From: Rhynchobatus australiae
Lineage: Eukaryota
Reading direction: 5' to 3'
DNA length: 64,000 nucleotides
Assembly: GCA_034780895.1 (NCBI GenBank)
Contig: JAUZTB010000083.1
Span: 3,932,019 to 3,996,018, forward strand
Below the pieces are notes generated by a model that was given only the letters and a program-made list of their open reading frames with translations, did no database searches and had not been told where the DNA came from. Within the stretch, counting starts at the first letter, position 1; each line of letters starts with the position of its first letter. Below, piece after piece: positions 1,940 through 60,362 of this stretch. The position numbers and the translations under genes are program-made.

Positions 1940-2830
1940 AAAAGCAGAAAATGCTGAAAATACTCGGGTTAGGTAGCATCTCTAAAGAGAAGGAGCAGAG
2001 TTAATGTTTCAGGTCAATGGCTTCTCATCAGAACTAGGTAGAAATCAATCATGCTTTAAGTTGCAAAGAAGTGGCCAGAACAAAGATGGTGTCTATGAAG
2101 TGGTAGAAATCAAGGTGCTCTTGTTGGCTGTAAGAAGGCTGGTTAATTGTATTAGATCTTCCTGCAAGAGGTGTAAGTAAATCGAGGTGATAGAGAGCAG
2201 AGGAGAGAGAAAGCAAAAGTACAATGTTGACACCGAGCAATACAAAACTGTAATTACTAGAAATCTGAAATAAATGGGATTGCTGGAAATGTTAGCAAGT
2301 AAAACAACATTTCTGGAGAGGAAAAGACTTAACGTTACAAGTGATTGACATTTTATTGGAATAACTCCAAATGGAAAGCTTGATTATCTGAAATTGTTGA
2401 ATTCATTGTTGTTCTGAGGACATTAATGTGCCTAGTCAGGCAGAGAGACGATGTGAGGTGCTTTTCCTCAAGATTGCTTTATAAGAACAATGCAAGAGGC
2501 AAGAGTCTGGTTATAGTGGTATGAAGAACTAGTGAATGGCAAATGGGAGCTCAGGGTTAACCTTGAGGACTGGGCAGAAGTGTTCTGCAAAATCGATAGC
2601 GAGAAGGGAAGAGCTTTAAGGAGCAGTCTCATTTGAATGCTGAAGGTGAGGGAAGTAGAAAATGTGTCCGGTGATAACATTAAATTATTAATGGCAAAAA
2701 TTTTGGAGGATGATCCATTACATGTAGAACCCAGTGGGGTGGTAAGTGAGGGAAACTGGATTCTTTTCTGTAAGATACAAAAGGATAAGGTCAGGAGTGT
2801 GTGGAGGACACCAGTAATGGGGGTTTGTAT
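1940..2830 (-). mobile_element. Old Penelope-like element 3' region with terminal repeats
   Basis: Terminal-repeat motifs at ~1940-2036 and ~2255-2360; reverse of ~2385-2475 gives a decayed LEEKHL..RLGTL..NEFNNFR* ORF end. Confidence 0.6.
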
Positions 2831-3632
2831 AGATGGTAAATGTATATTAAATGTTAATTACCAATCCAACAACAATTTAAAATATGCTTGTAGTCAAATC
2901 GTTCTGGGGCTATGCTCCTTTCTATCTCATTACTATCTCAAACATAATAATCCTCAGAATGCTACTTCCTCTAGTTTTGGCCTCGTGCGCCTACAACATC
3001 ACTCCATCAATGGCTTTGCCTTCAAATCTATGGGTCTTTGTCTGTGAAGGCTGTGAACCACCAAACAAATGGGTATCCGATTTGGTTGCAAATCTTGTCT
3101 GATAACACTTGTGAATCACACAGTTACACTTTACTATGCTAATACAGTGCCAAAATGAGCACACAAATATATTGTATCAAACTTCAATGTTCTTTTAGTA
3201 TCTGTGTCATCTAGAAGACTAGACTTGTCCCATGAAAACTCAACTTGATTGCTGATTAAATGTCAAGTGTTCTACTGTGTGCAAAGCCTTTGTTAGGGGA
3301 ATGGAACTTCGAGGAAGGACAGTGTTCAGAGACCTTTTTGATTTATTCACTTTTTGAGGTTTCAACGTTGAGAGCAAGGCCATTGTTTATTGCCTATATG
3401 TTACTTTTGAGAAAGCCGCACTTCATAAACCACTGCAGTCCTTCCTCATTTGAACTTGTATCCATCAAGGCAAATGGAGAATATTCCATGACACTCCTAA
3501 CTTGGGCCTTGTAGATGGTGAAAAACCATTTGGGTGTCAAGATACCCAATATCTGACCTGTTGTATGTAGCCAGATATCTATGTGAATTTCTGGTCATAG
3601 ATGACCTCTAGGATGTTGAGGTGGGGGAGGTG

Positions 3633-4305
3633 ATAGAACCATAGAACAATACAGGCCCTTCGGCCCACCATGTTGTGCCGTCCATCAAACCACNNNNNNN
3701 NNNNNNNNNNNNNNNNNNNNNNNNNNNNNNNNNNNNNNNNNNNNNNNNNNNNNNNNNNNNNNNNNNNNNNNNNNNNNNNNNNNNNNNNNNNNNACCTCCC
3801 TCTGACATCTCCCCTGAACTTCCCACCCATAACCTTAAAGCCATGCCCTCTTGTCTTGAGCATTGGTGCCGTGGGAAAGAGGCGCTGGCTGTCTACACTA
3901 TCTAATCCTCTCAACATTTTATACACCTCTATCATGTCTCCCCTCATCCTCCACCTCTCCAGTGAGTAAACCCCTAGCACCTTAAGCCTCTCCTCATATT
4001 CCATACCCTCTAATCCAGGCAGCATCCTGGTAAATCTCCATTTTTGGATTGAACTCCATCTGCCACTTGTCTGCCCAGCTCTGCATCCTATCACTATCCC
4101 TCTGTAAGCTCCGACAGCCCTCCACACTAATCACAACACCGCCGATCTTAGTGTCATCTGCAGACTTACTAACCCAGCCTTCCACCCCCTCATCTGAGTC
4201 ATCTATAAATATAACAAAAAGTAGAGGTCCCAGAACCAATCCCTGCAGATACCACTAGTCACAGCCCTCCAATCTGAGGGCACTCCCTCCACCACAACCC
4301 TCTGG
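3633..4305 (-). mobile_element. Young CR1 LINE 3' fragment, internally deleted
   Basis: ORFs [24 protein letters not shown] and [25 protein letters not shown]; tail ATAGAACCATAGAAC. Confidence 0.9.
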
Positions 4306-10870: not shown

Positions 10871-12327
10871 TTGGTAGAAGCATGTAAAGGAAAATAGCAT
10901 GATGCTGAATAAGGTAAAATAAATTGTATCAAAGGAGAACTTCAAAATAGGATTTGCTGAAAGAGCTGTGTGAGTTGAATCAGAAATACCAAATACTGGA
11001 AATCAGAAATAAAAACAGAAAATACTAGNNNNNNNNNNNNNNNNNNNNNNNNNNNNNNNNNNNNNNNNNNNNNNNNNNNNNNNNNNNNNNNNNNNNNNNN
11101 NNNNNNNNNNNNNNNNNNNNNNNNNNNNAGATACTGGAAATCAGAAATAAAAACAGAAAATACTAGGAACGTTCAACTTGAGCATCACCTGTGGTGAAAG
11201 AAGCAGAGGTAATGTTTTGGGAGAATTACGTTTAATTATGAATGCTAAAAGATTGCAGATGTAACAGAGTTTAAGCAAATATAGAGGCAGGAGAGGAAAA
11301 CAAAATGATCTTTTGACTGGTGAGGTTAATGAAAATAGGCTTGGTATCACACTGAGAAAAAGGGTGTCTGTGGAATGATAAACAAAAGGTCCAGCGCTGT
11401 AAATGGGAATAGCAGCATTGGTAGCAACTGCTGACATTATAAAAGGAAAATTTTATTTTAATGTTTGCAACAAGGACAGAGCAGTTTTTAATATTTTTTA
11501 GATTGGAATGTTAGCTTACACAAGGCCCCCTTTCTTTTGTTCTCTTTTGTGCTTCCTATGCTCACAGCTACCAGGGAACTGTCTCCCCCCACCCCCAATT
11601 CCTGTTTACTTCTTGTGACTAGGGCTCCTTTGTACGGCATTCAATTGAATTCTGGCTTGAGTAATCGCTCTCGCTTGCCCTCTGGAATTCAGTTGTTTGA
11701 TTCATAAACCAAAAAGAGCTGCAATCAAAAGTGGCCAACAGTGTCAAAAACGTTTTAAAGTGGCCATCATCATGTGTTAAATGGAGGAGTAGGTTAATGG
11801 CCTTTTCATATAGAAATACTGGTTTAGATCCATACCCATATTAGTACCACAATGCTCTTGTTTAAAACGTGAAAACTCTGTTTTAAGAACTGAGATATTT
11901 GATTTCACTGCTCTTTCCTTCCACTATCATGACCTGCATCCTAGTGTTTTACCACTTAATGGTTTCTCTGGACTGTGTTTGAAGATTGAAACTTCAGGTT
12001 GAAGGCCATCGAGCTGAAACATTAAGTCTGTTTTACTCTCCACAGTGGTTTGCTGCCTGACCTGAGTATATCCTGGACTCCCTACCAGTAACTGAAAAAT
12101 TCAAAATGTATTTCTTGTGGTTTTTTTACTCCTTGAATGTTGGTGTTGAAAAGCACAGCATTGGTGGTGATGTTCTAAATCAGAATAATGTGCCTCTTGG
12201 AAGGGAACCTGAAGGTGGTGGTCTAGTGTTGGCTTTGAACTTCTTGGTGACATTTGGAAGGTGCTTAGTAGTCTAGGTGAGTAACTGCAGCACATTTGGT
12301 AGATGGCATGGTGTAACATTGGTAAAA

Positions 12328-19061: not shown

Positions 19062-19118
19062 GGTCGCCATGTCAAAACAGGACAGCTTGCAGCCATCAAA
19101 GTTATGGATGTCACAGAG
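19062..19118 (+). CDS. MINK1: MINK1-like kinase exon 3 (GRHVKTGQLAAIKVMDVTE)
   Basis: Pyrimidine tract + CAG acceptor, GAG|GTATGG donor, 57 nt; contains kinase subdomain II AAIK lysine. Confidence 0.95.
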
Positions 19119-20229
19119 GTATGGAAATCTTTTGATTTATTGTAGTTACAATGAACTACCTGTCATTGCTGAACAATATTCCTGAAAGTTAGAGCATGAT
19201 GAAAACTTTCTGCTTAAATTTCTATTAAACTTTTAATATAGTTTATTTAGAACATTTTAAAATATTATCTAGAAGCATGGAAATTATTAAAAGAAAAAAG
19301 ACCAAGATCTATCTAGTTTGAATTTCTGAGTGGGGCAATGCAAAGACTTGGATAACTGGCAGTTCCATTCATAACTGTCAACATTTGCCACTTAACCAGG
19401 TGGAAGCTTGAAAATCCAAAGACAGAAACCAAAAGCCCTGCTTTCAACCAACCCCCCACCGTCACTCCTTCAGGAAGAGTTCCAACAACATGCCCTTCAA
19501 GTGCTTTGGCTCTCTTAAATTGCCTTAGTTTTAAATGGTGATCACTAGTTCTAAAGTCTCCCACAAGAAGAAGCATGTTTTCCGAACCCAGCAGGATCTT
19601 GTACCTTTCAATAAAGTACCCTCTCAAACTTGAGTGGATGGCCTGTCCAATCTTGGATCTGTCTAGTAAACCTTTCCTGAACTACTACTCCTGCATTATC
19701 ATCTATCCTGTTTAAGAAGAAAAATATTGTATGTAATACCCCAAATGTGTTCTCACCAAAACTTGGGTTGACACAGTTGTAAATACAGCTGTATGAGATC
19801 TGAGAAAATACACACTTATTTTGCAGGTGTATTTTTCAAAGATAAGAATTAGAGTTCCATTAGTGCAGAGGCATTTTATTTCAGTTAAGTCCAACACCTC
19901 CAGGACTAAGCTTCTTCCATGAAACACTGCTTCTTTCATGATAAAACCCACTTTCCTCAGCCTCTGAATTCTAAATGCTTAACACCCATATCTAGATGGC
20001 TATTTGTACATCTGTAGCTCTCACTCCTAGTTGCAGCTGTTCATTTCTAATCACCAGTTTATCTGCAGCTGCAGTTTTTTTTCTGTTTTATAAGCATCAA
20101 GACAGTGGTGAGTGCTCTTCTGAGCACTTAATGCAAAAGTGTAGGTTTACAATACAGCATGTTTCCTCATCTTGTGCCACGTGTACTGTTAAAATTAAAG
20201 CATAGCAAAGTGTATTGCTCTTTTTCTTC

Positions 20230-20480
20230 CATAGTCATAGAGCACAGAAACAGGCCCTTCCAACACCCATCTGCACGAATCCCATTTTACTCTCCCCACA
20301 TTGCCATCAAGTCTCCCCCCACCCACAATTTACAGTGGCCCATTAACCTACCAACCAGCATGTGGGAGGAAACTCAAGCACTTGAGTGAAAGCTCAAACA
20401 CAAAAATGTACCAAAGTCGGGATTGAACCAAGGTCGCTAGAGTTGTGAGGCAACAGCTGTACCCACTGTACCACCCCACC
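20230..20480 (-). mobile_element. V-SINE-like SINE, decayed
   Basis: TTTACAGTGGCCCATTAACCTAC and GGGATTGAACC (B-box reverse) motifs. Confidence 0.65.
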
Positions 20481-25250: not shown

Positions 25251-25469
25251 ATTGATTTGCACACAGCAGGATCCCAGAAATAGCAATGGATGATTGGCCA
25301 GGTGGTGGTGGTTAAGAGTGAATGTTGAATGAAGATATTGAATGAAATGCCAGCTCCATTTCTAAAGGTGCCAGGGGGTATTATACAACCTGAACAGGTG
25401 ACTTAGCCTGGGTTGTTTTAAAATCTTATGTACAGGAGTGCAAATGAAAAATGCTGATTTGATTTTTTA

Positions 25470-42030: not shown

Positions 42031-42363
<333 letters not shown>

Positions 42364-44909
42364 TGACTGCACTTCAGTTCTTAACAGCATTTCTTTACAT
42401 CAACCTTCTCCAGCGAGGATAGACAGTATTATCAAAGTTACCTTTTTTTTTAAATGCATTAACACTAAGTGATGAAGAATCCATTGAGGAATGTAAAAGG
42501 AAAAAAAAGTACTAACAGTTTTTAATTGAAGACAACTTGAACATCAAATTCCTAGCGGGATTATAGAATGATCTGATTCTGCAGAAGGCTTGATGGGCCC
42601 ATTGTATCTCTGCATAATGTAGTGATCATTCCAAGAGGGATTTCCTGCATTCCAAAAAGTTACTTGTGTAATTTTTTTTGTCTTTGAGCACTTAAGAGAA
42701 ATTGCACTTTATTTCCTCAAATTGTGTGTTCACTTGTAAATATGACTGTGGGTGTCAGTGTGCTTCAGGTTCCCAGGCAATATGCCCACATTTGGGTTGT
42801 ATGCTGTGCCTTTACACACAATTCTAATTTTTCAAGGCTCTGGACTTTGCTGCCAATCTGGTTTCTTGGTTAGACAACAACAAAACATCAGTTAGGTTTT
42901 GTTGCCACAATCTTAAGTGTATAAGAACAGCCATCTGCTGTAATCTAAAAACCTTGCTCTTAGCCAGTTCTTAATTTTTGAATTGGTATACATTATTGAG
43001 TTACGTCATTTATTAAGTAACACTCAATAACGCCACATTATGTTGTATTTAACCACAAAACACTTGTCTTTGTTTCCTCCCCCACCTTTTCAGACTGTTC
43101 CAATTTCATTTCTCCCAAATTCTGTTCCTCTGATCGAGGAATTGGCTGCTGGGTTGTAATCTATCCGCAGATTTCTCAGGAAAGCTCAAAAATATTGTAC
43201 ATTTTTTGTCTAGGAGAAATAAAAACCTGAGGCCGACAAATCCATTTCCAATTCCTCCACCACTCCCCCACCCCCCCCCACCAAAAACCTCCAATCCCCC
43301 ACTACTCCAAGTATAAGACAAGAGTAAACTGAGACCTGTGGCAAATTTTGGAAAATCATACCAAAAAGTATTCTGATTCGTCTTGGGTGGTCGGATTATC
43401 GACATAAAGAAAAGTATTTACTTGTAAAATACCTTTTCTGACCCGTGCATACCAAAACTTCACAAACAATGAAGTGCTTTGTTTTATGTACAGCCACTTT
43501 TATATATAACAAAAATGCAGTGGCGAAGCAGCAAAGTGATAATGAACAGTCATTACAAGAGCTATAAATATTAACCAGGTCAGCAGGGAGAACTCCTATG
43601 CTCTTTATAGATCGATAGGATGTTTTCCATTTAATTGAGAGATCAGACAGAACAGCGGTGTAATATTTTCTTCGAAAGATGCTACTTCCCAAAGCATTCT
43701 ATCAGTACTGCACTAGAGTGAACAATCAAGACTGCATGTGAATTGAACACACAACCTTCTACTTTGGTAATATGAGTGCTCCTAAATGAGCCATACTGGG
43801 TACAGAAGCATTTGCTTAAGTTACAGGCTGTCCCTGGGTAAAGAACGCCCAAATTATAGAACACACCTGCACAGGAAGGAGCTCCCATAATATTATTAAA
43901 TTCAAAAGTCCAGCGTATGTACACGCATCCGTTTCTACAAATGGCAGAAACTAGATTCCTCTCTTGCTCCACTTTTAGTAATTGTTCTTCTTTAATGGTC
44001 TTGTGTGCTTTAGGTGCCATTCATTATAATATTGTGGAGGTAAGGTTACCATATCAAGGGATTTTCATGTATTTTCTGACTTATGGACAAAATCAACTTT
44101 GGACATCTGCAAAGACAGAACCCATTCATGACCCACGAAAGATCTGTACTAGAGTAGTATCGAATGGTCTGAATCATTGATGCAGAGAGATCCATTTGAA
44201 TCACACAATGCCATGCACAGTAGTAAAGTTTACCATGAAATTGGTGTACTTTGTGAAAACTTATCTATTTCATTAAATTTTCTACAGGGTATCTTCCTGC
44301 TTAGCCTAGATGTGACCCCAGGCTCACCAATCTGTTATCAGTTGTGGCTGGTTAATAAGTGCCGTCAAGGTTGTATCCTGTGAATGAATGCATAACACAA
44401 TAGTTACCACACTGCAAAAGTGCTTGAGTGGACTTGAAGTACTTTGAAACATTTTGAGGTTGTGATAAAAGCTGTTTCAAGGCGATTGTATTTGCTTTGT
44501 TTCTGTACATTGTATCTTTGTTGGCTCAAATATATCAAGTTCAAGATTGTTGTTATAGGCGTACATACACAGGGTATAAATGCTGTGAAAATTAGCTTTT
44601 TGCAAAAGCAGCCCATACATTACAAGACAAGGATAAACACACATTAACAAAAATCTCACATGCACGTATGCAAAATAAACAACAAAATAAACATAACGAC
44701 ACCAGTGAAAATATTGAATAAATATGACTGTAGTACGTTATTCAGGTTTTTCTTTTAAACACAAATATTGGTTTAAATGTTTTATTTTTTAATGATTTAA
44801 CAATTGTATCAAAATACAGGATGTAGTTGGAGAAGCAATGTTCTGTTGATAACATGAACAACCAGTTTTTTTCCCCTTCCCTAACTCTATTCATTTGATT
44901 TCACTGCAG

Positions 44910-44964
44910 AGTGACATTTGGTCTTTGGGAATTACTGCAATTGAAATGGCAGAAGGCGCTCCAC
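44910..44964 (+). CDS. MINK1: Exon 8 (SDIWSLGITAIEMAEGAP+1 nt)
   Basis: CTGCAG acceptor, CAC|GTAAGT donor, 55 nt; DYR-SDIWSLG is MINK1-type. Confidence 0.96.
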
Positions 44965-46499
44965 GTAAGTTTCTTTCTTTAATCGGGGTTAGGAAAGGAA
45001 AAGGTCGCTATCTGAACTATCAGAAAAGCTAAAAGCTGTAAACTTGAAGTAAAAGCAGGAGATAATAGATCATCAGTTCAGGCAGCACAGCTTTCAGGCT
45101 CTGATGGAAGGTTATTGTCCTGAACTATCAACTGTGCTTCAGATACTAGCTGGCTTGCTAAGTATTTCCAGTAATTTCTGCTTTTATATGTTTGCATATT
45201 TTGCCAATATGACTACCTTTTTTGTTAATGGTTCTTTTAATTACTGAATTAATGATAAGAATAATCCTTGTGATCAATTTGAATTACTGACTTGAGGTTT
45301 GCAGTAGGAACCAGAGGAAAAAGCTGGCTGGATCTTTAGTGGTTAAACCAAGTTTAGTTTGGAGTTGCCCAGCTGAATGAAGCACTTGGCCTATCCAATC
45401 AATTCGATCCTTCAGCACATGGGTTGTGACCACTCAGTTGATGTGTCTTAACTTTTCATGTGCCAGCGTGTTGGACAGTCCTAGAATGACTGTTGCCCTC
45501 CAGAGCCAGAGTTTTATTTGCCTTCTCTTAGACTGAGACCAACAATAACCGTCAGCAATAGAAGCAGCTAAATATCATGCCCAGTTTAACACTAATAAAG
45601 ATAAATAGAACAAGAACTGGAACTGAAAGTAAAGAAAGAAAAAAGCTGGTAGCTTCACTTCTCCTGTTCCGGTGTAACACAGTTTCATGGTGTCTTGACT
45701 CATGTGCATTTTCCTTCAAATATGCAATTTTCCCCNNNNNNNNNNNNNNNNNNNNNNNNNNNNNNNNNNNNNNNNNNNNNNNNNNNNNNNNNNNNNNNNN
45801 NNNNNNNNNNNNNNNNNNNNNNNNNNNNNNNNNNNATTTTCCCCTCCAAATGTCAATATTCCTAAACTGTTCTCCCTTTTACTATCTTCTGGTTTCCCCC
45901 AGTCATCCTGTGTGGTAAAAATAATTTTGTGAAATATTAGAGGAGGCAACAAGGTTAAGCAGCTGGCTTTAGAGATTGCTTTTATCCACATATGAGAACA
46001 TAGTATTAGTAGTAAACATCAAAGCCTTCAGCTAATTCTGCCATTCATGGATGTTCTGTTCTCTAACTTTATTCACTTTTCTTGCTTTTGTATCTCTTGG
46101 TACCCCAGCCATGCATTAAATTTTCATTTGATTCCTACTGTCAACAGATCCTGGGGGAGAGATTTGTGTGAAGAAGCCCCCAAATACTCACATATCAAGG
46201 TTATGCCCCCGCGTTCTGGGATTTCTGCCAGAGGAATGGTTTCCGTCTACCCTATCAACCTCTTTCAAACATCTTTAACATTTCAATTAAGTCACTCTTT
46301 TGCTTAAGTAAATACAAGCCTTGACTGTGCAACCTGTCATCACAATTAACTGATTATGTTCTGATAACTCTCTACTGCATCCATCATGGGGACCACCATG
46401 TCTATTCTGGGATACTGTCTTCTCCAAGTCAGGTCTTGCCTCAGTTATAACAGTAGTGTGACTTCCATCACTTTGTGAATAAGCTCCCAACAATCGTCT

Positions 46500-46888
46500 A
46501 GCAAATTTACATTTGTCACCTGCCAGCTCTTTCTCCACCCCTTCCCTCCACCTTTGTATACTGGCTATCTCCCCTCTTTCAGTTCAGATGAAGAGTCTCG
46601 ACCCGAGACATCAACTGTCCATTGCCCTCCATTGATGCTGCCTGACCTGCTGAGTTACCCCAGCATTTGTGTATTGCTCTGGATTCCAGTATCTGCAGTC
46701 CCTTGTGTCTCTCTTTATATTTGTTCATGTCAAGCCAGAAAAGACCTTATCAGCGTCCTGATGAAGGGTCTCAACCTGAAATGTCAACTGTCCATTTCCC
46801 TCCATAGATGCTGCCTGACCCGCTGAGTTCCTCCAACATTTTCTGTGTTGCTCCAGGTTTCCAGCATCTGCACTATCTTGTGTTTCCA
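46500..46888 (+). mobile_element. Tandem pair of Penelope terminal repeats
   Basis: Two direct copies (46580-46712, 46755-46888) of hammerhead-like motif + GATGCTGCCTGACC.GCTGAGTT + CATCTGCA. Confidence 0.85.
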
Positions 46889-48494
46889 TGTTACCAATCT
46901 GTGTCACTCGAATAGGCAAATGAAATGTTAATATAACTATCATGCTTATTCATCAAATTGCAACTATAAAAAGTAAATGATTATTGGTATTCCTGAGGGA
47001 TTTATTATAAAATGTAAAATAGTTTCTGTGTGGAGGACGTTGTGTTTCATGTTCAGCAGAAGTTGGCCTTGCATACTTCTTATTTAAATCCTGAGAGTGC
47101 ATGAAAGCTCAACAATGAAATTCTGGCAATGTTCACCATTGGGGTGAATAACAATGGATATTGGAGAATGCCGTCTGGGTGCCCAGCCCTTTCATTGGGA
47201 CCAGGGTGCAAAGTCCCAGCTTGTCACCAAGTTCTTGCTTCTTCAGCACCTAAGCAATTGCTGGCTCAGTTGAGGACATATTGAGGAAGAGAAATACCAA
47301 TCCTGTAATAATATCAGCAGTGAAATACATAAATATTATGGTTGTGCTGATTTCATAGCAGGACTAAGGGATGCAGTGGATTAAACCACTGTCCTTTATC
47401 AAACAGATTACACTTTCAAGTATCTATATATTCCCAAGGGAAGTGTTTGGGCAATCTCAAACCAGTGGCTGCAAGAAGCTAGTCTGATGCCCAATCTGAC
47501 AACTGTTTGGTACACCTTTTAACCAGATGGTGTTGACTAGTGTATCCCATAGAAATTTCAAGGTAGATTTGTGACACAGTAGTTCTGTTAATAGACTAAC
47601 CATCAAGAGCAGTTCAAATGCTACTGCAGCTACTTGTGTCACAAAATTTAAAAAAACGATGGCAAAAGAGTGACCATGGAAGCTGTCAGACTGATGAAAA
47701 GGCTCAGTTGGCTTACGAGTTTATGAAACCCTCCATGGTCACCACATCTGATCAATATATGATTGTATCATCATGCTCTGGGCTGCCTCGATTTGTCTCA
47801 TAGCTTGGGTAGTAAATATCAGCTTTTCGGGAGTGAATTTGTCAAATCCTAGTTTCCTACGAGTATGCAGAGTGCAGTATTTTACCTAATACCCTGATCT
47901 TAAGTGATGTGATCTCCTTTTTAATGGAAGTAAAAGCCCATTTCCTTTAAAGTAATTCATGTATGAATTTCAGCTGGATATTCTATTTTCGAGTGGATTG
48001 CCTCTGATATGACACAACTGGCATTAGGAAATGGGCACCTTGCCCAGCTTTTATTAATGGTCAGATACTTTTTTTGGAGCTGAAGTGGCGTGGGTGGGGG
48101 TAAGGAGGAAGTTGCTGCTTGTTGTGACATGAAAACTCTATGCCTTTCACTCAAGTCTGTCATTCTTCCTCCTCTGATAATGCTTCAAGCCATGTTAGTT
48201 GGGTGGAAAATACACCAGTGCATTTACTGCTAAACTTTGTGATGATAACATGACAAAAGTACCTTGGGTATGCAATCTTCAGACCCTGCCTTTGGCCAAC
48301 CAGTGTCTGCATTTGCTGGGCTCAGCTAACTGGTATTGGTATTGGTTTATTATGGGTGTGCCCGACTGGGGTAAGACAGGCAAACATGCAGAAAATAAAT
48401 GGATTCTTATAATAGCTTTGAAACGTCTACACATGCGTGATCAGAACAAAACGTACATGATTCCAAGATGATGGATTTTCAATAACTGGTTTAA

Positions 48495-48668
<174 letters not shown>

Positions 48669-51600
48669 TAAGTGATTACGTGGTGTGGTGGTTGGGAATG
48701 AAACATCCTGTGTGCTTATCAGTTTGAAAATATGCTAGTCTTCCTACATTTGAGAAATGGAGGTACATTAGTGTGTTTAGCAAGATGCTGCTAAGCCAAA
48801 AACGTATAGAACAGAACATGAATTGAATCAAACAGTAGTAGCAAGGTATTTCTTGTGTCTCCATTAGCAGCTAGATGATGGACACTGCAGTATCCAGAGC
48901 ATGTAGATTGTTGGAAGAAAGGCAGACAGAGGGAAGACAAATGGCTATCAAAGCTCCAGCAAAGTTAGAAGTAAAGCAGCTAAAAGAAAGGAAAAGTTTG
49001 AATGAAAAGTTTAAAAAGTTGAGGGAATACAGTCAAAATTTGAGAAAGATTATAAGAGTAGGCAATTTCAACAACAACTTTGTTCAGCTCTGGCTAATGA
49101 GCATCCATATAGGTGTTTAGGATGTTCCGAGTAAAGATGGCATACTTAAAGAGATGTCCCACCCAAACACAGTGCTTAAGGTTTGCATATTGTAGAGAGT
49201 AACTAGTTTTGCAATGTACTTATTAAACAAACTTGCTCTGAAATGATTAAAAGATAACTTTAAAAAAAATTTAAACTGATGACCTGAAATGGTTGAATGA
49301 TAATCTGATGATACTTAGATGATTAAATAACGTAAATGATGAATAAAGGAAGTCCTTATGACACTAGTTACCACAAGACACAACTGAGGTAAAGAGGATA
49401 GATATACTTAAGGGAAAGTTAGAGCAAGGAATAGAAAAATATGTTGATGAGGGTTATAAGAGGACAAGGAGGAGCATTGTAGGCAGCATTAAGACTAGTT
49501 TGGACCTGATGGGCTAAATGAGCAAAATTGCAATAAAATAGTCCGACTATGATAACTAAATTGGGAAGATGGGGGTAGTAACAGGGAACGGAAACTAGAT
49601 GATGTGGTTTGTGGAGCTAGCCTTTGGTAGCTTATAACTGTTCACGTAAGTGTAATAGTTTGCAATCTGGAGCAGAAGACTGTCCATGCCCTTTGTTGTG
49701 CTGAAATAAAGTTANNNNNATATCAAAATATCTTGAAAGAGACGTTGTTTTTTCATTCTTTATTATTATCTTAAGTGATGGAAGATCTGGGTTATTACAT
49801 TGATTTTACAGTGTACTGCAGCACAATAAACTTTCTGTATTTATTCTTCATTCTTAAAGAATGCATTAGATCCAGAAGCTTGAAAATACCATGTAATATT
49901 TGATATTCTGATTATTCCTGGGAAAATGAGATTACCTTTAGACTTGATTTCCAGTAAGGTGGAAAGATGTAATAATGCCCAAGGTTGATTAAATGAGGCC
50001 ACATTTCAGCATCTGATCTGGATATCAGCATCAAGAGAGCTTGTTTGATTGGGGAACCTGGACAACAACAAGGGTTTTTTTTGCCGTAAAGTTTGAAAAG
50101 TTGAGTGCCCTTGGGCGTCGTCTTGGGGCTGATCTTTGAATTGAATGATTCAAGTAGGATCCAAGTTTCCAAACTTTGCATAAATCTGAATTTATACAAA
50201 ATATTATCTGAAGTTCATACATTTATCTGAATATGTTTATCTGAATATATAAACAATATATTTATCTGAAGTTCATAAATACCGTAAACAAATAATCCAA
50301 GTTTATAGTAAATGACNNNNNNNNNNNNNNNNNNNNNNNNNNNNNNNNNNNNNNNNNNNNNNNNNNNNNNNNNNNNNNNNNNNNNNNNNNNNNNNNNNNN
50401 NNNNNNNNNNNNNNNNNNNNNNNNNNNNNNNNNNNNNNNNNNNNNNNNNNNNNNNNNNNNNNNNNNNNNNNNNNNNNNNNNNNNNNNNNNNNNNNNNNNN
50501 NNNNNNNNNNNNNNNNNNNNNNNNNNNNNNNNNNNNNNNNNNNNNNNNNNNNGTGCACTGTACACTTAGCAAGAATGCACTGCCAGCTGCTGCTCGAAAG
50601 ACTGACTGTGGAGAGGTGGTGTGATTTTGAACCACCACCTTTCAATGAGAGCCTGTCACTAGAGGTGGGAGGTGGCCTTGCCTGGAAAATGTCAAGAAGT
50701 GATTTAGAACATAAATGATTTCAGTTACAGTGTGCAGGCCTGACTGCGGTTCACAAGCACCAAGCTCACCCTGTCCGCTCGCTGTAGGTACAACATTTAG
50801 ACGCACCCTCTTTATCACCAGAATTCTTCTGCTGAATTTAAAAGTTATATGCCTTAAAAAGGCCTGGTTATTTTAAACATTAAATGTAAATTGGACCTTG
50901 TGCTAATTTAGCAATTAGTTCAAATTTGAACAGTATGAACTAACTTAGTAACGAAGCAGATTTATTTGCAATTATTTATTGCCTGCTCTCGTCTAGCCAC
51001 CTGTTGACCAGCGCTGTTGTGTGACCAGAGTATGCTCCCATTTGGCAGGCTCTGGGCATCTGCAAGAGATTGCAATCCTTTTGCTCAATCCCTTGCCTTA
51101 TCCAGGAGTACGAATGGCCTGGAATTGTTGACTGGGTTGCTAATCTTTAGCTGAGGGAAGCAAGGACTGATCACCCTGGTACTTTGAAACATAGCATCAC
51201 TGGGAAGCCTCGGAGTTGTTGAAGGATCCTCATCCCCTCTGTCCTGGAGGATGGAGTGTAATCATGGTGTACAAATCAGATGTTGGTGGGAACTTGTTAT
51301 GCTGGATCTCTAGGGCATCCTTGTCAACTAGTTGACTTTAACCAAATGTACATGTATGGAATGACCTCTGTAGAGGTTGCAAAATAGTTATGTATCTGCA
51401 ATAATCCATAAACTTATTCTGGTNNNNNNNNNNNNNNNNNNNNNNNNNNNNNNNNNNNNNNNNNNNNNNNNNNNNNNNNNNNNNNNNNNNNNNNNNNNNN
51501 NNNNNNNNNNNNNNNNNNNNNNNNNNNNNNNNNNNNNNNNNNNNNNNNNNNNNNNNNNNNNNNNNNNNNNNNNNNNNNNNNNNNNNNNNNNNNNNNNNNN

Positions 51601-51720
51601 NNNNNNNNNNNNNNNNNNNNNNNNNNNNNNNNNNNNNNNNNNNNNNNNNNNNNNNNNNNNNNNNNNNNNNNNNNNNNNNNNNNNNNNNNNNNNNNNNNNN
51701 NNNNNNNNNNNNNNNNNNNN

Positions 51721-51731
51721 TGGTGAGAAAG
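51721..51731 (+). CDS. MINK1: Visible 3' end of exon 10 (..GEK+1 nt); remainder in gap 51424-51720
   Basis: T GGT GAG AAA G|GTGAGG directly after the N-run matches the family KKRGEK exon end; phase 1 fits exon 11. Confidence 0.85.
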
Positions 51732-51844
51732 GTGAGGAGGAGCCAATCAATCAGCTACTACTGCCCATTCAATGAATGCAATGCAAGTGACTGTTGGTTC
51801 AAGTATAATTGCAAAGAAATAATGACATGTCATGTCTTAAACAG

Positions 51845-51914
51845 AGGAGACCGAGTATGAGTACAGCGGCAGTGAAGAGGAAGAGGACAATGTTGGTGAA
51901 GAAGGTGAACCCAG
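51845..51914 (+). CDS. MINK1: Exon 11 (EETEYEYSGSEEEEDNVGEEGEPS)
   Basis: AAACAG acceptor, CAG|GTGAGT donor, 70 nt; conserved TEYEYSGSEEE motif. Confidence 0.95.
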
Positions 51915-53164
51915 GTGAGTTGTTCACCTGACTTTTCTGAATATAAACCATGTGCAGAATGTACCCTTGGCACTTGGTTTTCTTTTGCTCAGACTACTTA
52001 TTCCTACATCCATTACCTTAACATAGTTCCCACTTAATTTTGCTCTGGTTGTGGGTTGTTGGAAGGGAGATTGAATCTGTGAACTTCATGCTTGGTGCAG
52101 AGTGATTTTGATCCTGAACAATAGCATGTACAACGTTAACAAAAGCAGTCATGCTTAAGGTGTAGCACAATTGAGTGTGAAGTAAATATTTCTGCTCTGA
52201 GGAGAATCCCCTACCTCAACAGTACCCTTGAGTGAGATTATTTTGATGCCTACTTCCATGTTGTATGACTATGTGAAAGGTGGAAGTTATGCTTGTTAGG
52301 AAATGGAACATCACAATTTCTTCCTGCATCTTGGAAAACTAGTTGTTGCTTTTCCCAACCTCTCGTACAAATTCCACACCCTCATGATTAATTCCACTCG
52401 CTCTCCCTTGCTACCCACATAGATCCAAACTGTTTACACTACAGAGCTTTGATACAAAGTGGAGCTTCTAATTCATTATTGTCTCCACTACAAAGACCAC
52501 CAATCCACATTTTGCTTGATTCTTTAGCTCAAAACAAACATGGAGGCGATCTCTTCTGATGAATTGCTTGATAAATACCAGAATAATTTTAATGCATTCA
52601 TTTTTACTGACTCGTTGAAAACCACAGTTGCTGAAATACATGTATCAAAAATGTGATTTTGAAGAGAAATGTCTCTGCTCAATGCATTTATCTTCGTTGT
52701 TTCTTATGTGGTCCTTCTGGCATTAGAGTGGAGGCATTGGAGGGGTGCAGAGGAGATTTACCAAGATGCTGCCTGGATTAGAGCATATGGAATATGAGGA
52801 GAGGCTTAAGGTGCTAGGGCTTTACTCACTGGAGAGGAGGANNNNNNNNNNNNNNNNNNNNNNNNNNNNNNNNNNNNNNNNNNNNNNNNNNNNNNNNNNN
52901 NNNNNNNNNNNNNNNNNNNNNNNNNNNNNNNNNNNNNNNNNAGTTACAGAGAAAGTGCAGTGCAGGCAGACAATAAGGTGCAAGGTCATAACGAGGTAGA
53001 TTGTGAGGTCAAGAGTCCGTCATCGTACTAGGGAACCGTTCAATAGTCTTATAACAGCGGGATAGAAGCTGTCCTTGTGCCTGGCGGTACGTGCTTTCGG
53101 GACCTTTGAACTGAAATGAGGCAGCGCAGCCTTACTGAAGTGGAAAAGCTGAGTACGAAGGGCG

Positions 53165-53345
53165 AAGCAAGAGATTCTGCAGTTGCTGGAACCTGGAGCA
53201 ACACACACAAAATGCTGGAGGAACTCAGCAGATCAGGCAGCATCTGTGGAGGGAAATGAACAGTCGGCGTCTCGGGTCGAGGCCCTTCATCAGGACCGGA
53301 AAGGAAGAGGGCAGAAGCCAGACTAAAGAGGTCCGGGGAGGGGTC
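53165..53345 (-). mobile_element. Penelope terminal repeat
   Basis: Reverse complement of the 34300-34655 family. Confidence 0.85.
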
Positions 53346-54459
53346 TGTGAAAGTATTGCTGTTAGGGGAAATAGATAGCAACATGAATGATATTAGTGTC
53401 ATTCATTAGTAGAAAAGTTAATGCGAGAAGGTAAAAAAGGGGTATTGTTAAGCAGGGTGTCCAAGGAAGTAATGTGAGAGTAATTGGTATAATCTTGTTT
53501 GCCCTGGTGAGATCATTGAACTTCAAACACACCACTGCATTCTGCATTCATGCAGGTAGTGCTGGTTGTCAATGCTACTCCTCCTTATTTGGCCAATCTC
53601 CTGCCACATATCACTGGCATCCTGCCTTCTTGAGGTCTGCTAAGGTGAGAAAAGTTTGTGGAGTGAACGTGTGAAATTATGACATCTTAAGAAAAACACG
53701 AAACTCACGACGATCAGAGGGGGAAGCTGGTGAATATTGTATTGCAGCCACTTTCTAAATGGGTCAGAAGAAATAATACCAAGATGATATTTAATTGACT
53801 CACCAATCCATTGATTTAAAAGGACCACATTGAAGTTGATTAAAAATAATCTCATATCAGTTTCTGTTTACGGTTTGAAAGAAGATTGCAGAGAATAAGG
53901 CTTTCATGTCTGTGACAGGATTGTATGGCATATTTGAGGGATATATTGACCCCAAGTTGACCAACATCAAAAAATAACGAGCTTGAGTTTCCAAAGTAAT
54001 GTGCACGACAGTATGAAATCTCAACCCTGGGGAACATTTCCGAACAATACTTACTGGGCAGACTTTGCATCTCACCCAGCAAGTTTGTTGTTGAGTTGTT
54101 CACCTTAAACTTTTGCTGCCCTCAAAATTCATTGTGCGTCTGAATGGAGGACTTGCTTCCGCATTTCTTGTTTTTATCTCTCTCCACTGATACCAGAGGC
54201 TTAATACATTGCTATTGTAGAAAGAATAGAGGGCTGGAAGACTGACTAGTTGGGTGTCACTGGTACTTTATATGTGAGGGATCAGGTTTTAAGGACATTG
54301 TTGGACCAATGCTTTTTACAGAGATAATTAGAACACTTACAAAAGGCACCGAAGAAATCCAAGCTGGTCTTATTTCCTTTGCACACGCATTTCCCTCCTC
54401 ATCTCCCTTGAACTGTGTGAACTGCTCCTTTTGGGAATTAGCATTGCAGTGAACTAGCC

Positions 54460-55110
54460 CACCATCTTTTCATGGGACGACTGTAGTTTAGAATAACACT
54501 CTTGTCTCTGATTCAGAAGGTTGTGCCCCACAAAAATCCAGGCACACTCTCCAATTACAATGTTGAGGGAATGCTCCACTGTCTGAGGTCCCACCTGTCA
54601 GGTGACAGGTTTAACCCATACCTTATCTACTCTCACTAATTGATGCAAAAGGTCCGTGGCCATTAGGACATACATTGAACGTAGAGCACAGGAACAGGCC
54701 CTTTGGCCCATGATGTTGTGCTGAACTAATTAAGCTAATGATGCCGAATTAAACTAATCCTTTCTGCCTGCACGTGGCCCACATCCCATATCCCTCCATT
54801 CTCTGCACATTCATCTGCCTATCTAAGAGCCTTTTAAACCCCTCTATTGTATCTGCCCACCACCACCACCCCTGGCAGCATGTTCCAGGCACCCACCACT
54901 ATGTGTAAGAAAAAGCTTGCCCCGCACATCTCCTTTGAACTTTCCTCCCTCTCACCTTAAATATATGCCCTCTGGTATTCAACAATAGATTAGTATTATT
55001 TCAAAGGGAGGGTAGACTTTGCCAATTTTTATTCCTTAATGAATGGCATGAACAAAAATGCTCTGGTAATTATGATATTGTTATCTATAGGAGCTTGCTG
55101 TGCGCAGCAC
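54460..55110 (+). mobile_element. Deu-domain SINE (SacSINE1-like) interrupted by a CR1 tail (54665-54985, -); other copies ~880-1250 (+), 9420-9760 (-), 35770-35970 (-), 43540-43780 (-), 59800-60110 (+)
   Basis: CACTCTTGTCTCTGATTCAGAAGGTTGTG head; GGAGCTTGCTGTGCGCA motif; GAAGAAGAGCAG..GAGTT in the 59.9 kb copy. Confidence 0.65.
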
Positions 55111-56179
55111 ATTGTAAGAAACAAGGACAGGCCATTCAGCCACTCCAACCTACTTCACCGTTCAGTGAATTAATGCCTGCTCTGATCAAGGCCTTAGCTC
55201 CAGTAACGTGCCCGTTCCCCATACTCCTCCACTACCCTGTAGCCCAAAGACCTGTCTATCTGAAATAAAAGCAGAAAATGTTTGAAACACCTAGCAAATC
55301 TGTCACTTGAAATAGTAACTCTATTTCCCTTTCCACAGATGCTGCCTGACCTGCTGAGAGTTTCCAGCATTTTCTGTTTTTATTTCTAGCAGGTTTTGTT
55401 TAATATTTAGGAGTGGGGACAACATTATCCTGATTGTAGTCCTAGATTAACAATGTCTTGTCATCAGATAGGACTTTGTGGTAAACTGTGATAGGGCCGC
55501 AGTCCCAGAGATGATTTCAGATCTCTCTGTGGGCTGGCACCAAGAAAGCTACAGGATTGTTGTAAAAACCTGGCACTCTCACAGGTGTCCTTTGGGCTTG
55601 TGTATATCTCCAGTCCTCCAGTCTCTGTTTGATTCTCAGAGTTGCCGTGGTAACTGGGAATTAGCATTAAATGGTGCGTCACATTCATTCAAAGAACAAA
55701 TGAGAAGAATTGTGAGCACAGGCAGAGGTTATTCAAGTTGGACCAACTCCACTGCTACACTTTGTCTCCTTCCTGTTGTAGTTGTCTGTCTCTGTCGCTT
55801 GCCTTTACCCTGTGCTGTGAGAAATCAGGGCCACTCTGCTTCTCAGCATCGGCCAGAAGGTTAGGCAGACAGCAGTGTTTATAGGGCTCTAATCCGTCCA
55901 GAATTGTACAAGTTATTTATGCAAAGCTGTTTGACAACCTCCCATCCTGTATATTTTAAAATATTATTGCCTATTCCCATCTTGTTTTGGGAAATTCAGC
56001 TTGTCATCATTCTCATTACTCAAGCCTTTTCCCGCATAGACAACCCTGTCTTTGAGGTGCTGCTACACTCTGACCCTCTCTGTAAATAAATAATCAGTTC
56101 AGTGAACTTGGTCGGGATAGGGAGAGCAGGGAGAAACTTCTCCACGTGAGCCCATCAGCACAGAAGATAAGGAGAGTTC

Positions 56180-57060
56180 CAAATAACACTGCAGATGCTG
56201 GACATCTGAATTAAAGCAAAAAATGCTGGAAATACTCAGCAGGTCAGGCAGCATCTGTGAAGGGACAATCAGTCAACAATTTGGTTGTTAACTATCCATC
56301 AGAAATGATGAGAGTAATAGAGTAATACAGCATGGAAACAAGCCCTTCAGCCCAACTTGTTAATGCCGACCAAGATGTCCCTAAGCCAGTCGTATTTGCC
56401 TACATTTGACCCATATTCCTCTAAACCTTTCCTATCCATGTACCTGTCCAAGTGTCTTTTAAATGTTGTTAATGTACCTGCCTCAACCACTTGGGCAACT
56501 CGTTCCATATAGCCCCCAGCCTAGTACGATAAGGTGAACTCTAGACCTCACAATCTACCTCGTTGTGACCTTGCACCTTATTGTCTGCCTGCACTGCACT
56601 TTCTCTGTAATTGTAGCACTTTATTCTGCATTGCGTTATTAGTTTCCCTTGTACAATCTCAATGCACTGTTGTAATAAAATTATCTGTATGAACGGTATG
56701 CAAGACAAGCTTTTCACTGTGACAATAATAAACCAATGTACCAATTTCTGCTAATTTGTGAATTACAATGCATTCATGTTGGGTCAAACAAGTTTGTTTC
56801 CATGTGATGAGGCAAAAATCTGAAATAAAAAACAGAAAATGCTGGAGATATATTTAGCAGATCAAGTAGATTCTATGTAAAGAGAAAGAGAATTAACATT
56901 TCAGTTTGATAACCTTTCATCAGAACTGGAAAAGTGGGCAAATAAGCATGTTTTAAATTGCAAAGTGGGGACGTGTTGGAGACAACAAAGGGATTGTTAG
57001 TGATAGGGAGCAGACAAGATTGTCCCGGTGACACAAATGCTCTTGTTACCACCTAAGGGA
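56180..57060. mobile_element. TE cluster: PLE repeat (-), CR1 tail (-), Rex-Babar UTR (+), PLE repeat (-)
   Basis: Each block matches a family defined elsewhere in the window. Confidence 0.75.
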
Positions 57061-57223
57061 GGATGATGAATGTCAATAACAGCTGATCTATCTAGAGGAA
57101 TGTAAACGGAGGGAAATGAATGAGAGGGTGGGGGAGAAGAGCAATCAAAAAGAGCTGATTAGCTGTCTCCTGTGTTGTTCCGTCATGGTCTGCCTCTTCT
57201 TCCCCTCTCGCCCTGTCCGGCAG

Positions 57224-57440
57224 CTCCATTGTGAATTTGCCAGGTGAGTCCACGCTCCGGCGAGACTTCCTCCGCCTGCAGCAGGAGAATAAGGAGCGCT
57301 CGGAGGCCGTGAAGCGGCAGCAGCAGCAGCAGCAGATTGCGCTGCCTCGCCGGGACCTGGAGGAACGCAGGCGGCAGCTCATCTCCGAGCGGCAGAAACG
57401 CATCGAAGAGCAGAAGGAGCAGCGGCGTCGGTTGGAAGAG
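57224..57440 (+). CDS. MINK1: Exon 12, start of coiled-coil region ([37 protein letters not shown]...EQRRRLEE)
   Basis: C-rich tract + CAG, GAG|GTAAAA donor, 217 nt; [13 protein letters not shown] motif. Confidence 0.95.
57318..57335 (+). repeat. Coding (CAG)6 polyglutamine tract
   Basis: Six uninterrupted CAG codons in exon 12. Confidence 0.95.
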
Positions 57441-60362
57441 GTAAAAAGAAACGTTCTCGGGAACATTTCTGTTCGGTTTTACTGCAGTAGAGGTCATAAG
57501 TGATGTCGGCAGATTCTGGAGTAATGCTATGGCATCTCAGTGGAATGTTTGCTCTTTGTGAAGAAGTATTCCTGTCCATTGTTAACCTCAGGGTTACTTA
57601 GTGCATTTCACTCCAAGAACACACAATAACATGGGAAGTCACTTTCACTTTTGTCTGGCCTGGTCCTTTGTGCAGAATTTGGCCTTTATTAGGTGGACTG
57701 CCTCACGTGCATAATGAAATCTGGATTGATTTACCATACAGTTCACTGAATAAACCTTATTTCTGGTTGCTGTTGGCTGTCTCATGTGCACACCATCCTT
57801 TCAAATCTGTCACCCAAGATAAAGTCGTTGACTCCCGCAAGCATATTCTGTTCACCCTCTTCACCGCTCTCTGAGCCTGCACAGATCGGTCTCTCTTTTT
57901 CATCCCCACCCTACCTCAGACATTCCCTTCGTTCTCTCCACTCTCTTAAAAGCTTGATTTCTAACTTCCAGTTCTGATGAAAGATCGTCAACCTGTAAGT
58001 TAACTCTGTTTCTGTCTCCGCAGATGCTGAGCCTTTCCAGAAGTTTTTGTTTTTAACCTCAGATTTAAAATTCTGCAGCTTTTTTTTTGCTTTTTGATCT
58101 CCATTTGCTTCCTAAATAGGCACAATTCCTAATAATGTCGACACAAATCTAAATTGGTGGCCATGCCATGGCTATAAGAATGTTCTGAAAAAGTGAGGTG
58201 GAAATGTTGTAGTGGCACAGTTACTGCTTTTGAGGTTACAGGGCAGAACGTTTTGCTTCAGTGAAGCTATGAGGAGCTTTTGAACTGGAAGTGCTGGCAA
58301 CTAATGCTGACTGCCAGAAATAGAGAAGTGATCCATTCTCCACAATTAAGAATTCACTGAAATGTTAACTGGCATTAATTCTGCATCACTCAGGATTCAT
58401 CAAACCTGCAAAAGCAGCAGAGACACTGGCTTTTTTTTAATTAAGGTCACAGTCTGACACTGCATTTCAAATTGTCTTTCAGTCACAATTTGTCAACCAG
58501 ATCCTCATAATTAACGCATACTGTGCAGTATTTCATAAAAGACTTCATGTGTCTGATAGTGAACCTGGATGCTAAGGTCTAAATCTCTGTTTGACGCATT
58601 TATTACCTGTTGCCTTTTTTTTAAAACCAGCACTTAAGCATTTGCTGCTCAATATTTATGAAAGTGGACAACATAAAAGTGATTTATTTTTGATGTGTCC
58701 AAAGCACGGTTGTAAATATTGGAGAAATATTGTTCTCTCACGTGCTTTTGTGGTCACCACACACAAGATGAGCAATTGAGTGTAGTGTAGTTTGCATGAG
58801 GATCTTAAAACACTCCATGTAGCTGAGTTGTTAACTGCTCACTGCTTTACTTTCTGCTTGGGTGATTTTTAATTAGTTTTCAGATTCATTTTTATGATGA
58901 GAGGTTCAACTCCATAATAACCGCATCTGCTTGGCCTCGCACAAAATCGGTCACATTAATGGGGCTATTTCATCAATCTTAATTCACCCATTCAGAAAGA
59001 TCCTGCAGTCTCCCAACCTCAGATTCCAGTTGTTTTTCATAAAATGCTAGTTAGTGTTTGCCATCTCTGGAAGTCTGTTCCATACCATGTCCAGTCCTAG
59101 ATTTTGTTGTTTTGTTGGTCTGAGTTTTTGGTTCCATGTTCTACTTGCAAAGAATTGCATTGAATTTGCAGCATGGATGTAAACACGAGCCTTCCTCCCA
59201 CCTCTCTCGATCTATTAGAAATAGTTTTTCTTATCTCTTAACTCTCCTTTACATCTCTAAGCGCGTGCCTTTGTCATCCTTTCAGACTGAAAAGCCCAAG
59301 CTTTTTATTTCATAAAACTAATCTCTGACCAGGAATCAAGTTCGTGGCTCTACGCTGCTTAGACCATTTGAACTGTATTGCACCAGCAACCAGACCTAGG
59401 CGAAAAGCATCAAAGTACAGACAGTCAGAGAAAGCCACGTTGAAAGCCACTTTGGTATCCCTGGATGACAAAAGTATCCTTCAATGTGACATTCTCTAAT
59501 CGGATGCTCTATTCCCTTTTCCCTTTTAAAGTATTTGTTAAAACCCACTTTTTCGACCAAACTAATGTTTTTAAAATGACTCCTGTACGATGTCCTTGGA
59601 CGATGCATCATGTTTAAGCTGCTGTATAAATATGTTATTGTCGCTAATCTGGCTCTGTAACTCGGTAGTTGCTGCAAGTAAGCAACCACAATGGGAAGAT
59701 CACTTGGTTCAATTGCCATAATCGGCCAAAATTCAGGCAACATCCATTGCTTAGTTGGAAACATGTTCCTCCTTTCCAATGATGGGGTCAGTTTCCACTC
59801 AAGATCTTGGAGCCCATTATCCATACTCCCGTTGCCGTACTGGTGGAGTCCTAAACTGTAGAAGGTGGTGTTTGATGAGACCTAAAATGAGCCACATCTG
59901 TCCTCTTGTGTGAAGATAGAAGATACCATTGAAGAAGAGCAGAGGAGTTAGCTCTACTCCTGGCCTATTTTTTCCCTTCATTTTTTAAAAAAAGAAATAG
60001 GCTAACTATTATTAGTGCAGAAGCTACACTGCAACTATGACTGCAGGTCAAAAGTCATTGGTTGTAAAGTATTAATGGAGGTTCTTGGTTTACAAAAGAT
60101 ATTTTGTAGAACTCAGTCTATGTTACATAGAGGCAAGTGCATGCGGGCTGCCTTCATAGGAAGCCATGCTGAAGAGTTCCCACCATTGCTGCCCAGTCCT
60201 GCTAAAGCATAAGAAAGTTAGGAAGGAAAATAGCCTAACTAGCGTTTGGTTTGACTGAAGTGGTTGTGGCATTAAGTAAGAACCTGAGGCGCAGGTACAG
60301 TCCTTTAATTTGGTATGCACGTTGTGTGCTAAAGAAAATTAAACCACCACTTTAACTTTCAG

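Follow-up and report, generated by a model that had tools for sequence, protein, structure and literature searches.

A stretch of 64,000 nt from the genome of Rhynchobatus australiae (contig JAUZTB010000083.1, positions 3,932,019 to 3,996,018; hereafter the window) carries many copies of a hammerhead ribozyme motif among the exons of a kinase gene, and it raises the question of which element brought these motifs there and how their present state is to be understood. Our analysis makes it very probable that they are minimal type I hammerheads which lie in likely 5'-truncated, dead pseudo-long terminal repeat (pLTR) insertions of Penelope-like elements (PLEs), likely of the Neptune type, that arrived in at least two waves of transposition and have since likely decayed neutrally in introns.

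A composite insertion joins hammerheads to a Penelope-like reverse transcriptase

The most informative locus is a composite insertion in which a fragment of a reverse transcriptase (RT) lies between two oppositely oriented hammerhead copies. Its parts, and a second trace of a PLE open reading frame (ORF), are:

26805..27337 (.), single PLE insertion; RT fragment between a tailless inverted pLTR arm on the left and a tailed direct arm on the right
26805..26900 (-), subfamily C copy; core start 26898; position 9 is C
26901..27203 (+), Penelope-like RT fragment; 101 codons, open, contains the MDVQSLY motif
27204..27337 (+), subfamily C copy with tail; core 27213, three core lesions
2658..2795 (-), weak PLE ORF remnant (RT thumb/linker); tblastn E 6e-4 and 0.003

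Both copies of subfamily C have the CTGATGCA core and the TTCG loop; they form the arms of one insertion and are sisters in the tree of copies (support 99/97). An 11-bp target-site duplication (26794-26804 / 27338-27348, 10/11 match) flanks the whole unit, and a comparable match between two 21-nt end windows arose by chance in 7 of 3000 random trials. The RT fragment is 62-71% identical to predicted proteins (P0002: 62%, E 1e-33) and has 1377 relatives at E <= 0.001, the closest named one being a protein of the stingray Hypanus sabinus. When ten long relatives were chosen among 150 listed, nine contained RVT_1, nine GIY-YIG and eight both, several of these matches falling below the Pfam curated cut-offs. 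A cysteine linker CX3-4CXXC and a CCHH finger, not encoded in the window, are present in the relatives P0003, P0004, P0032, P0045 and P0046, and a CX2-5CXXC linker and CCHH finger are features of Neptune and Nematis, not of Penelope or Poseidon (PMC8557442). With respect to its relatives, the family resembles the endonuclease-positive (EN+) PLEs of the Neptune/Nematis kind, which combine RT, a C-terminal GIY-YIG and a cysteine linker (PMC8557442, PMC3846280). Unlike complete EN+ PLEs, the window has only the 101-codon RT piece and two weak remnants, and the clade is assigned via the relatives. The remnant at 2658-2795 is in sense to, and upstream of, the copies at 2360 and 2031, and the other lies near 9.4-9.5 kb (-); the reversed-window control of this search was empty at E 0.01. 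Among viral contigs, no relative of the PLE protein was found.

Two further observations concern the coding sequence. A stop-free frame of 167 codons (26769-27269, +) runs across the inverted arm and the RT fragment into the direct arm, probably by chance, and the predicted protein P0008 (314 aa) consists of about four tandem copies of the RT segment that matches the window fragment.

The copies are minimal type I hammerheads in various states of decay

A motif profile was built from the 11 copies listed by the initial annotation, each with 140 nt of downstream sequence, and it gave 17 window matches at E <= 1e-4, compared with a best match of E 0.55 in the reversed-window control. The hammerhead region is spanned by 16 copies. 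A covariance model was made from these same 16, so that their matches to it hold by construction, and the next window match had E 0.22. All 11 of the listed coordinates contain the motif on the strand given for them, the named variants of stem, loop, core and cleavage triplet are all present in window copies, and the proposed minimum of three subfamilies is visible as groups A, B and C. The count of about ten copies has to be modified in both directions. Motif copies now number 16, and independent ones are fewer than had been counted: as the C arms are a single insertion and the 34528 and 35220 copies have duplicated flanks, there were at most 14 independent events. The copies other than the two C arms, named here by their core positions where these are given, are:

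34429..34653 (+), subfamily A, tailed, pLTR extends upstream for 99 nt or more; core 34528; U4A, helices otherwise perfect
35113..35315 (+), subfamily A, without tail; core 35220; probably arose from the 34528 copy by local duplication
46517..46713 (+), subfamily A, with tail; core 46585; own 11-bp target-site duplication
46755..46886 (+), subfamily A, with tail; core 46758 intact; a CpG-type change disrupts the helix I pair 2.1-1.1
53165..53343 (-), subfamily A, with tail; core 53293; A14G, U16.1C
1935..2068 (-), subfamily B; core 2031 intact; helix II damaged
2233..2365 (-), subfamily B, strongly decayed; additional to the initial list
11129..11245 (-), subfamily B, strongly decayed; additional
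11989..12098 (+), subfamily B, strongly decayed; additional
26201..26382, B-like copy with tail on the minus strand; core 26324, C at position 9; additional
45033..45190 (+), subfamily B; core 45100; weak inverted piece before the copy (E 3.1)
55249..55390 (+), 5'-truncated, 3' hammerhead half only; weak inverted piece before the copy (E 8); additional
56175..56308 (-), decayed copy with tail; core 56302; additional
56820..56965 (-), subfamily B, best-preserved hammerhead; core 56923 intact; one mismatch in helix II
57966..58060 (+), subfamily B; core 57974; A13U, deletion at 15.2

The repeat measures about 100-230 nt. It may begin with a pyrimidine-rich part on the 5' side, followed by the hammerhead and a further 60-95 nt. 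The hammerhead itself is laid out as a helix I strand, CUGAUGA, an extra base, a 4-bp helix II, GAAA, CG, UC or UU, and the second helix I strand; the helix III loop is absent in all copies, and the ACGU is palindromic. The CUGANGA and GAAA boxes, an NUH cleavage triplet and the type I order are the majority state at every core column, and the single unpaired base between 9 and 10.1 and the palindromic 15.2-16.2 are features of minimal type I hammerheads. Hammerheads of this minimal form (min-HHRs) were described in the pLTRs of metazoan PLEs by Cervera and de la Pena in 2014 (PMC4209133), and the window copies agree with them in type, extra base 9/10.1, lack of helix III, palindromic 15.2-16.2 and U-rich 5' flank. 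Further points in common are the occurrence of several families per genome with compensatory changes, the predominance of single motifs that stem from truncated elements, and pairs on opposite strands 100-700 bp apart (PMC4209133). An Acropora Neptune motif (Fig. S3 there) agrees with the window family in its 4-bp helix II, its 4-nt loop and its CG-UC end, and the entries examined in that figure and in Table S1 include no cartilaginous fish. Subfamily B, unlike the min-HHR consensus, replaces the conserved G-C by A10.1-U11.1, and C9 and A4 recur among the window copies as further departures from it (PMC4209133).

None of the copies is undamaged. The initial annotation had seen a lesion in each, and indeed 0 of the 16 satisfy a strict minimal-hammerhead descriptor. 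All 11 invariant core bases are retained in three (46758, 2031 and 56923), each with a helix mismatch. Across the 16 copies, 72% of the helix cells are paired, versus 15-38% in slid controls, and the pair 10.1-11.1 is G-C in six, A-U in six and G-U in two, with G-C in A/C and A-U in B. When folded singly, helices I and II form in the 34528 copy only; the folding z-score of the hammerhead region was significant in none of five copies, and the 46585/46758 pair did not fold into hammerheads as a dimer. An Rfam scan of the window gave 11 matches at E <= 10, with no hammerhead family among them, and the exact degenerate motif had no match in metagenome and viral contigs. A loose core pattern was also tried and set aside: its 8 matches compare with a mean of 3.8, 4 of 100 shuffles reach 8, and, being near chance and missing the spacing of subfamily A, it provides no test.

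Several features around the motif were seen in passing. A pyrimidine tract followed by CAG, resembling a splice acceptor, is located precisely at the 5' strand of helix I (34500-34526, 46560-46583 and 56929-56945 on the minus strand), and loose contig ends in the genome runs described below fall at the same place, position 26900. The Penelope of Drosophila virilis has an intron end at this very place (PMC4209133). A second such tract with CAG stands right before an ATG about 50 nt behind the core (46803-46830 and equivalents). The predicted protein P0013 of another genome starts with the tail frame (9/10 residues) and runs on into a PLE RT, which may be a true start exon or an artefact of gene prediction. 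On the 3' side of the hammerhead, a long hairpin is predicted in the 46758 copy (46806-46870, z -3.7) and in 53293 (z -1.9), not in 34528, and it is a candidate for a structure at which RT starts. The cleavage site lies within a 6-nt palindrome (positions 16.2-1.3; GUCGAC in A, GUUAAC in B), as a result of which base 17 changes along with the pair 2.1-1.1; this may reflect a second pairing, or chance. In the region 34100-35450, blocks of pLTR and of adjacent repeats have been duplicated locally in shuffled order (87-96% identity). The duplicated region extends over an assembly gap, and part of it may be a misassembly. Within it, the 35220 and 34528 copies share 87% identity over 203 nt, and the adjoining blocks are duplicated too, at 91-96%.

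Ends of the dispersed copies carry the marks of Penelope-like insertion

The 3' ends of the copies fall into two groups, one close to +92 to +95 and the other close to +125 to +129 as counted from C3, and the 5' ends are spread from about -107 to +18. A tail of about 30 nt stands above background in 7 of the 17 copies, and in the inverted unit 26805-27337 it is found on the right arm only. The 46585 copy has the second target-site duplication (46506-46516 / 46714-46724, 10/11 match); the automatic search for such duplications mostly returned chance-level or internal matches, and they were accepted only where both ends meet repeat boundaries. In addition to 26805-27337 there are one clear and two weak head-to-head pairs; in the clear one, the 26324 copy (-) is joined to a short inverted copy at 26325-26382 (+). 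An inverted 5' copy, an optional tail of 30-40 nt and duplications of 8-10 bp are known PLE signatures (PMC3846280), and the family shares with EN+ PLEs the 5' truncation, the inverted 5' copy, the optional tail and target-site duplications of about 8-11 bp (PMC8557442, PMC3846280). In the Anolis element, RT can start at two sites, and the sequence between them makes up the tail (PMC11167929). The window family resembles this Poseidon element, PAc, in having two 3' ends about 30-35 nt apart, about 100-125 nt behind the hammerhead, and an AT-rich target, although PAc belongs to another PLE clade (PMC11167929).

Related loci and genome runs link hammerhead, tail and reverse transcriptase

Among metagenome contigs, 80 loci with related ORFs were found, in which the strict descriptor detected 12 min-HHRs, versus 0-1 in shuffles that preserved non-overlapping dinucleotides only. 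In 6 of 30 eligible loci, a sense min-HHR lies 96-282 nt past the end of the matched ORF, and locus L010 has one at both ends. The covariance model of the window copies gave 25 matches at E <= 5 in these loci, and 9 of 26 eligible ones have a match in sense less than 300 nt behind the ORF end (at 50-276 nt), compared with 0.35 expected for this range.

For each of four organisms, the contigs of a whole run were aligned to 26762-27420 at 80% likeness, and 23,101 to 42,316 contigs per run aligned to the element. Together with the Hypanus sabinus relative of the RT, these counts bear out the earlier proposal of an abundant retroelement-borne hammerhead in cartilaginous fish. Summed depth in run X1 was 757,000 for the tail, 45,000-52,000 for the hammerheads, 700-7,200 for the RT piece and 0-11 for the flanks; summed depth is not copy number, and only the gradient is used here, which is what 5' truncation gives. 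A sharp 3' end is present at 27338 with 1229 loose contig ends, and there are many joints between inverted and direct arms. None of the best 15 of 932 joints or of the 32 pieces listed crosses the junction between RT and hammerhead. A single head-to-head contig of run X1, joining 26898 to 27237, has a depth of 891, which is far above single-copy depth and was seen in organism A alone. An amplified mini-element made of inverted repeats is one possible source; the short side of the joint has only 24 letters.

Several observations weigh against an origin from PLE pLTRs. Clear target-site duplications were found for only two insertions (3 of 17 copies), and 17 of the 26 eligible related loci have no model match behind the ORF. 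Searched alone, the RT fragment had no match in Pfam or PDB, and neither a full-length element nor a GIY-YIG sequence is present within the window. The RT fragment abuts the hammerhead directly, without the remaining ORF, from which it follows that the insertion was rearranged. Subfamilies A and B are linked to the ORF by sequence that they have in common with C, by one weak remnant and by distant relatives.

Retrozymes as an alternative carrier

The initial annotation had called the copies retrozyme-like, a label that names a related but not the exact element, since the carrier is the pLTR of PLEs with an RT/GIY-YIG ORF. Animal retrozymes are themselves derived from PLE pLTRs and are present in one chondrichthyan genome (10.64898/2026.07.22.740005), and the window copies have the type I hammerhead, the short non-coding form and the PLE connection in common with non-LTR retrozymes (PMC7229834, 10.64898/2026.07.22.740005). 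An alternative is that subfamily A or B consists of non-autonomous PLE derivatives of the retrozyme or short interspersed element (SINE) kind, with short masters of their own that use PLE proteins in trans, possibly via circular RNA. We regard this as unlikely. It would fit with a hammerhead depth about 7-70 times that of the RT, with the start of several copies within 8 nt of helix I, and with the chondrichthyan, pLTR-derived retrozymes of the same preprint. However, elements with 5' truncation normally show a surplus of 3' ends, and the variable 5' ends are as truncation predicts. Retrozymes form head-to-tail units of 150-450 bp, typically with canonical hammerheads, and give circular RNA (PMC7229834, 10.64898/2026.07.22.740005), and a canonical type I hammerhead is typical of them (PMC7229834). 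In contrast, the window copies are scattered and truncated, their hammerheads are minimal, and RT sequence lies within one of them; none of the three tandem arrays in the window bears a hammerhead, and the members of the close pair 46585/46758 are 82% identical, with 46585 having its own target-site duplication. The assignment to retrozymes fails on two features, as a hammerhead-bearing tandem array is lacking and the ribozyme is minimal rather than canonical.

Two parental lineages probably differ by compensatory changes

In the tree of the 16 copies, A and C form one clade (support 100/97) with short branches, and the B copies have longer, unresolved branches. A is characterized by C2.1-G1.1, G10.1-C11.1 and GUC, and B by U2.1-A1.1, A10.1-U11.1 and GUU. 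The covariation that had been noted earlier holds in so far as two pairs change on both sides between subfamilies, but it is not significant on 16 copies: 13 cells changed on both sides, versus 9.2 +/- 2.8 in shuffles (reached by 52 of 500), and the covariation score was reached by 74 of 500. Variation within subfamilies is CpG-rich decay, as had also been proposed. CpG columns differ most (13/50 in A, 11/26 in B), a rate that is partly circular because the CpG column class was defined from the same copies. The core is preserved no better than its surroundings within subfamilies: core positions differ at 6/50 in subfamily A versus 34/373 at other non-CpG positions (p 0.45), and at 5/55 versus 66/369 in subfamily B (p 0.12), each based on five copies.

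One may ask whether CpG decay in individual copies accounts for all of the stem variation, so that the apparent covariation is an artefact. Such an explanation profits from the shuffles just given and from the fact that in both changing pairs the 3' partner is within a CpG in subfamily A; moreover, about half of the aligned depth genome-wide has lost each CpG (at 15.2, C 53% / T 41% in run X1; at 16.2, G 47%; at 1.1, G 48%). We nevertheless consider it improbable. The changes at the 5' partners, C2.1 to U and G10.1 to A, fall outside CpG, and the U17-A1.1 of the B copies requires two changes, which single CpG decay cannot produce. Because the 5' partners are not in CpG, and because U2.1, A10.1 and U17-A1.1 are each found in 7 of 8 B copies, the B parent had the U-A and A-U pairs. 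Judged from these sequences, the two compensatory changes between the parent lineages look real, although they amount to one lineage contrast only, and they likely arose in the active parent lineages and not in the window copies.

The kinase gene and selection on sense copies

The host gene is represented by one series of exons:

19071..57440 (+), MAP4K4/MINK1/TNIK-family kinase exons; near 19071, 29526, 32540, 35558, 42058, 44910 and 57200

The exons match MAP4K4 and MINK1 with E 1e-23. The claim that all copies lie inside one gene is confirmed for 19-57 kb, where the kinase exons are on the plus strand; left of 19 kb no earlier exon was found, and the copies there are probably in an upstream intron. 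For the further suggestion that sense copies in introns are selected to lose activity we found no support, as the 16 window copies are oriented 8 sense and 8 antisense, with intact cores in 1/8 and 2/8, respectively, and core lesions do not differ (Mann-Whitney p 0.59). The sample is small and has low power, so that a weak strand bias may have escaped it.

A host that selects against functional sense hammerheads because they would cut the kinase pre-mRNA is, in our judgement, a highly improbable cause of the decay. Intact sense copies are indeed absent, and retrozymes are depleted in Xenopus introns (10.64898/2026.07.22.740005), but no intact antisense copies exist either, and the two strands are equal in the measures above. 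Monomeric min-HHR showed no cleavage (PMC4209133), and the min-HHR of Anolis required the protein of its element (PMC11167929), and a solitary copy should therefore be of little cost. Just one pair of sense copies lies close together (46585/46758, 173 nt apart); both of its members are broken, and it has no hammerhead fold.

The introns also contain many remnants of long interspersed nuclear element (LINE) reverse transcriptases (3795-4254(-), 12642-13594(-), 22434-22754(-), 24874-25186(+), 28285-28561(+) and 52766-52840(+)), which we take to be CR1/L2-like by their motifs. For 41000-47700, no RNA data set was listed as containing the sequence, a result that has no bearing on expression.

A model for the origin of the copies

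The following sequence of events would explain the copies. An intact element elsewhere in the genome would be transcribed, and its RT/GIY-YIG protein would nick AT-rich DNA, as may be expected from the Anolis element (PMC11167929). Reverse transcription would start from one of two sites, about 95 or about 125 nt downstream of the core, and produce copies without or with the tail; the two classes of 3' ends are observed, and the two start sites are their presumed cause. Synthesis usually stops early, as is seen from the copies, most of which retain no more than the tail and the hammerhead and are often joined on their 5' side to an inverted partner. By analogy with min-HHRs, whose monomers do not cleave and whose dimers show low cleavage (PMC4209133), the hammerhead of the parent RNA would cut only as a dimer formed via the palindromic ACGU, or with the aid of protein. 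Once inserted, the copies accumulate CpG-rich lesions, which are observed in the window.

Core variants and the need for cleavage

Some deviations from the consensus core recur in a way that may concern the parents rather than single copies. C9 is shared by the two arms of the C insertion and by the 26324 copy, which is unrelated to them; A4 is present in 34528/35220 and independently in 46585, and so in at least two separate insertions. At position 26866, 70-74% of the depth in all four runs has the C-type letter, which reduces helix I to 3 bp, and subfamily C must hence be abundant. A literature search found no paper with 'A9C' together with hammerhead and catalytic core, C9 and A4 are absent from the text of section 8 of PMC3088659, which deals with core variants, and two protein searches with repeat translations, made for core variants in other genomes, were both empty. 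On the basis of these sequences, we tentatively put forward the possibility, which we do not favour, that high-copy PLE subfamilies of elasmobranchs spread with a broken ribozyme, with C9 and a helix I of only 3 bp in the parent of C and with A4 in one branch of A. Cleavage might then be dispensable for transposition in vivo, and the motif might persist for its structure or for the binding of a protein; alternatively, these might be new core variants that work. If C9 and A4 were fixed in parents, the spread of PLEs would here have been independent of the consensus core. This would agree with the Anolis element, of which catalytic mutants still inserted in vitro (PMC11167929).

Dimeric PLE hammerheads were reportedly treated by Lunse et al. 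in 2017. Our literature search did not find hammerheads in PLEs of sharks or rays, which that work and the supplement of the 2026 preprint may cover.

In conclusion, the locus as it stands is ordinary, as its hammerheads are the fossil ends of Penelope elements, and such hammerheads have been described since 2014. Sharks and rays are added to the list of animals with PLE hammerheads. The great abundance of the family and the differing ages of its several subfamilies make it a good natural data set, which bears on the question of whether PLE hammerheads must cut for transposition.

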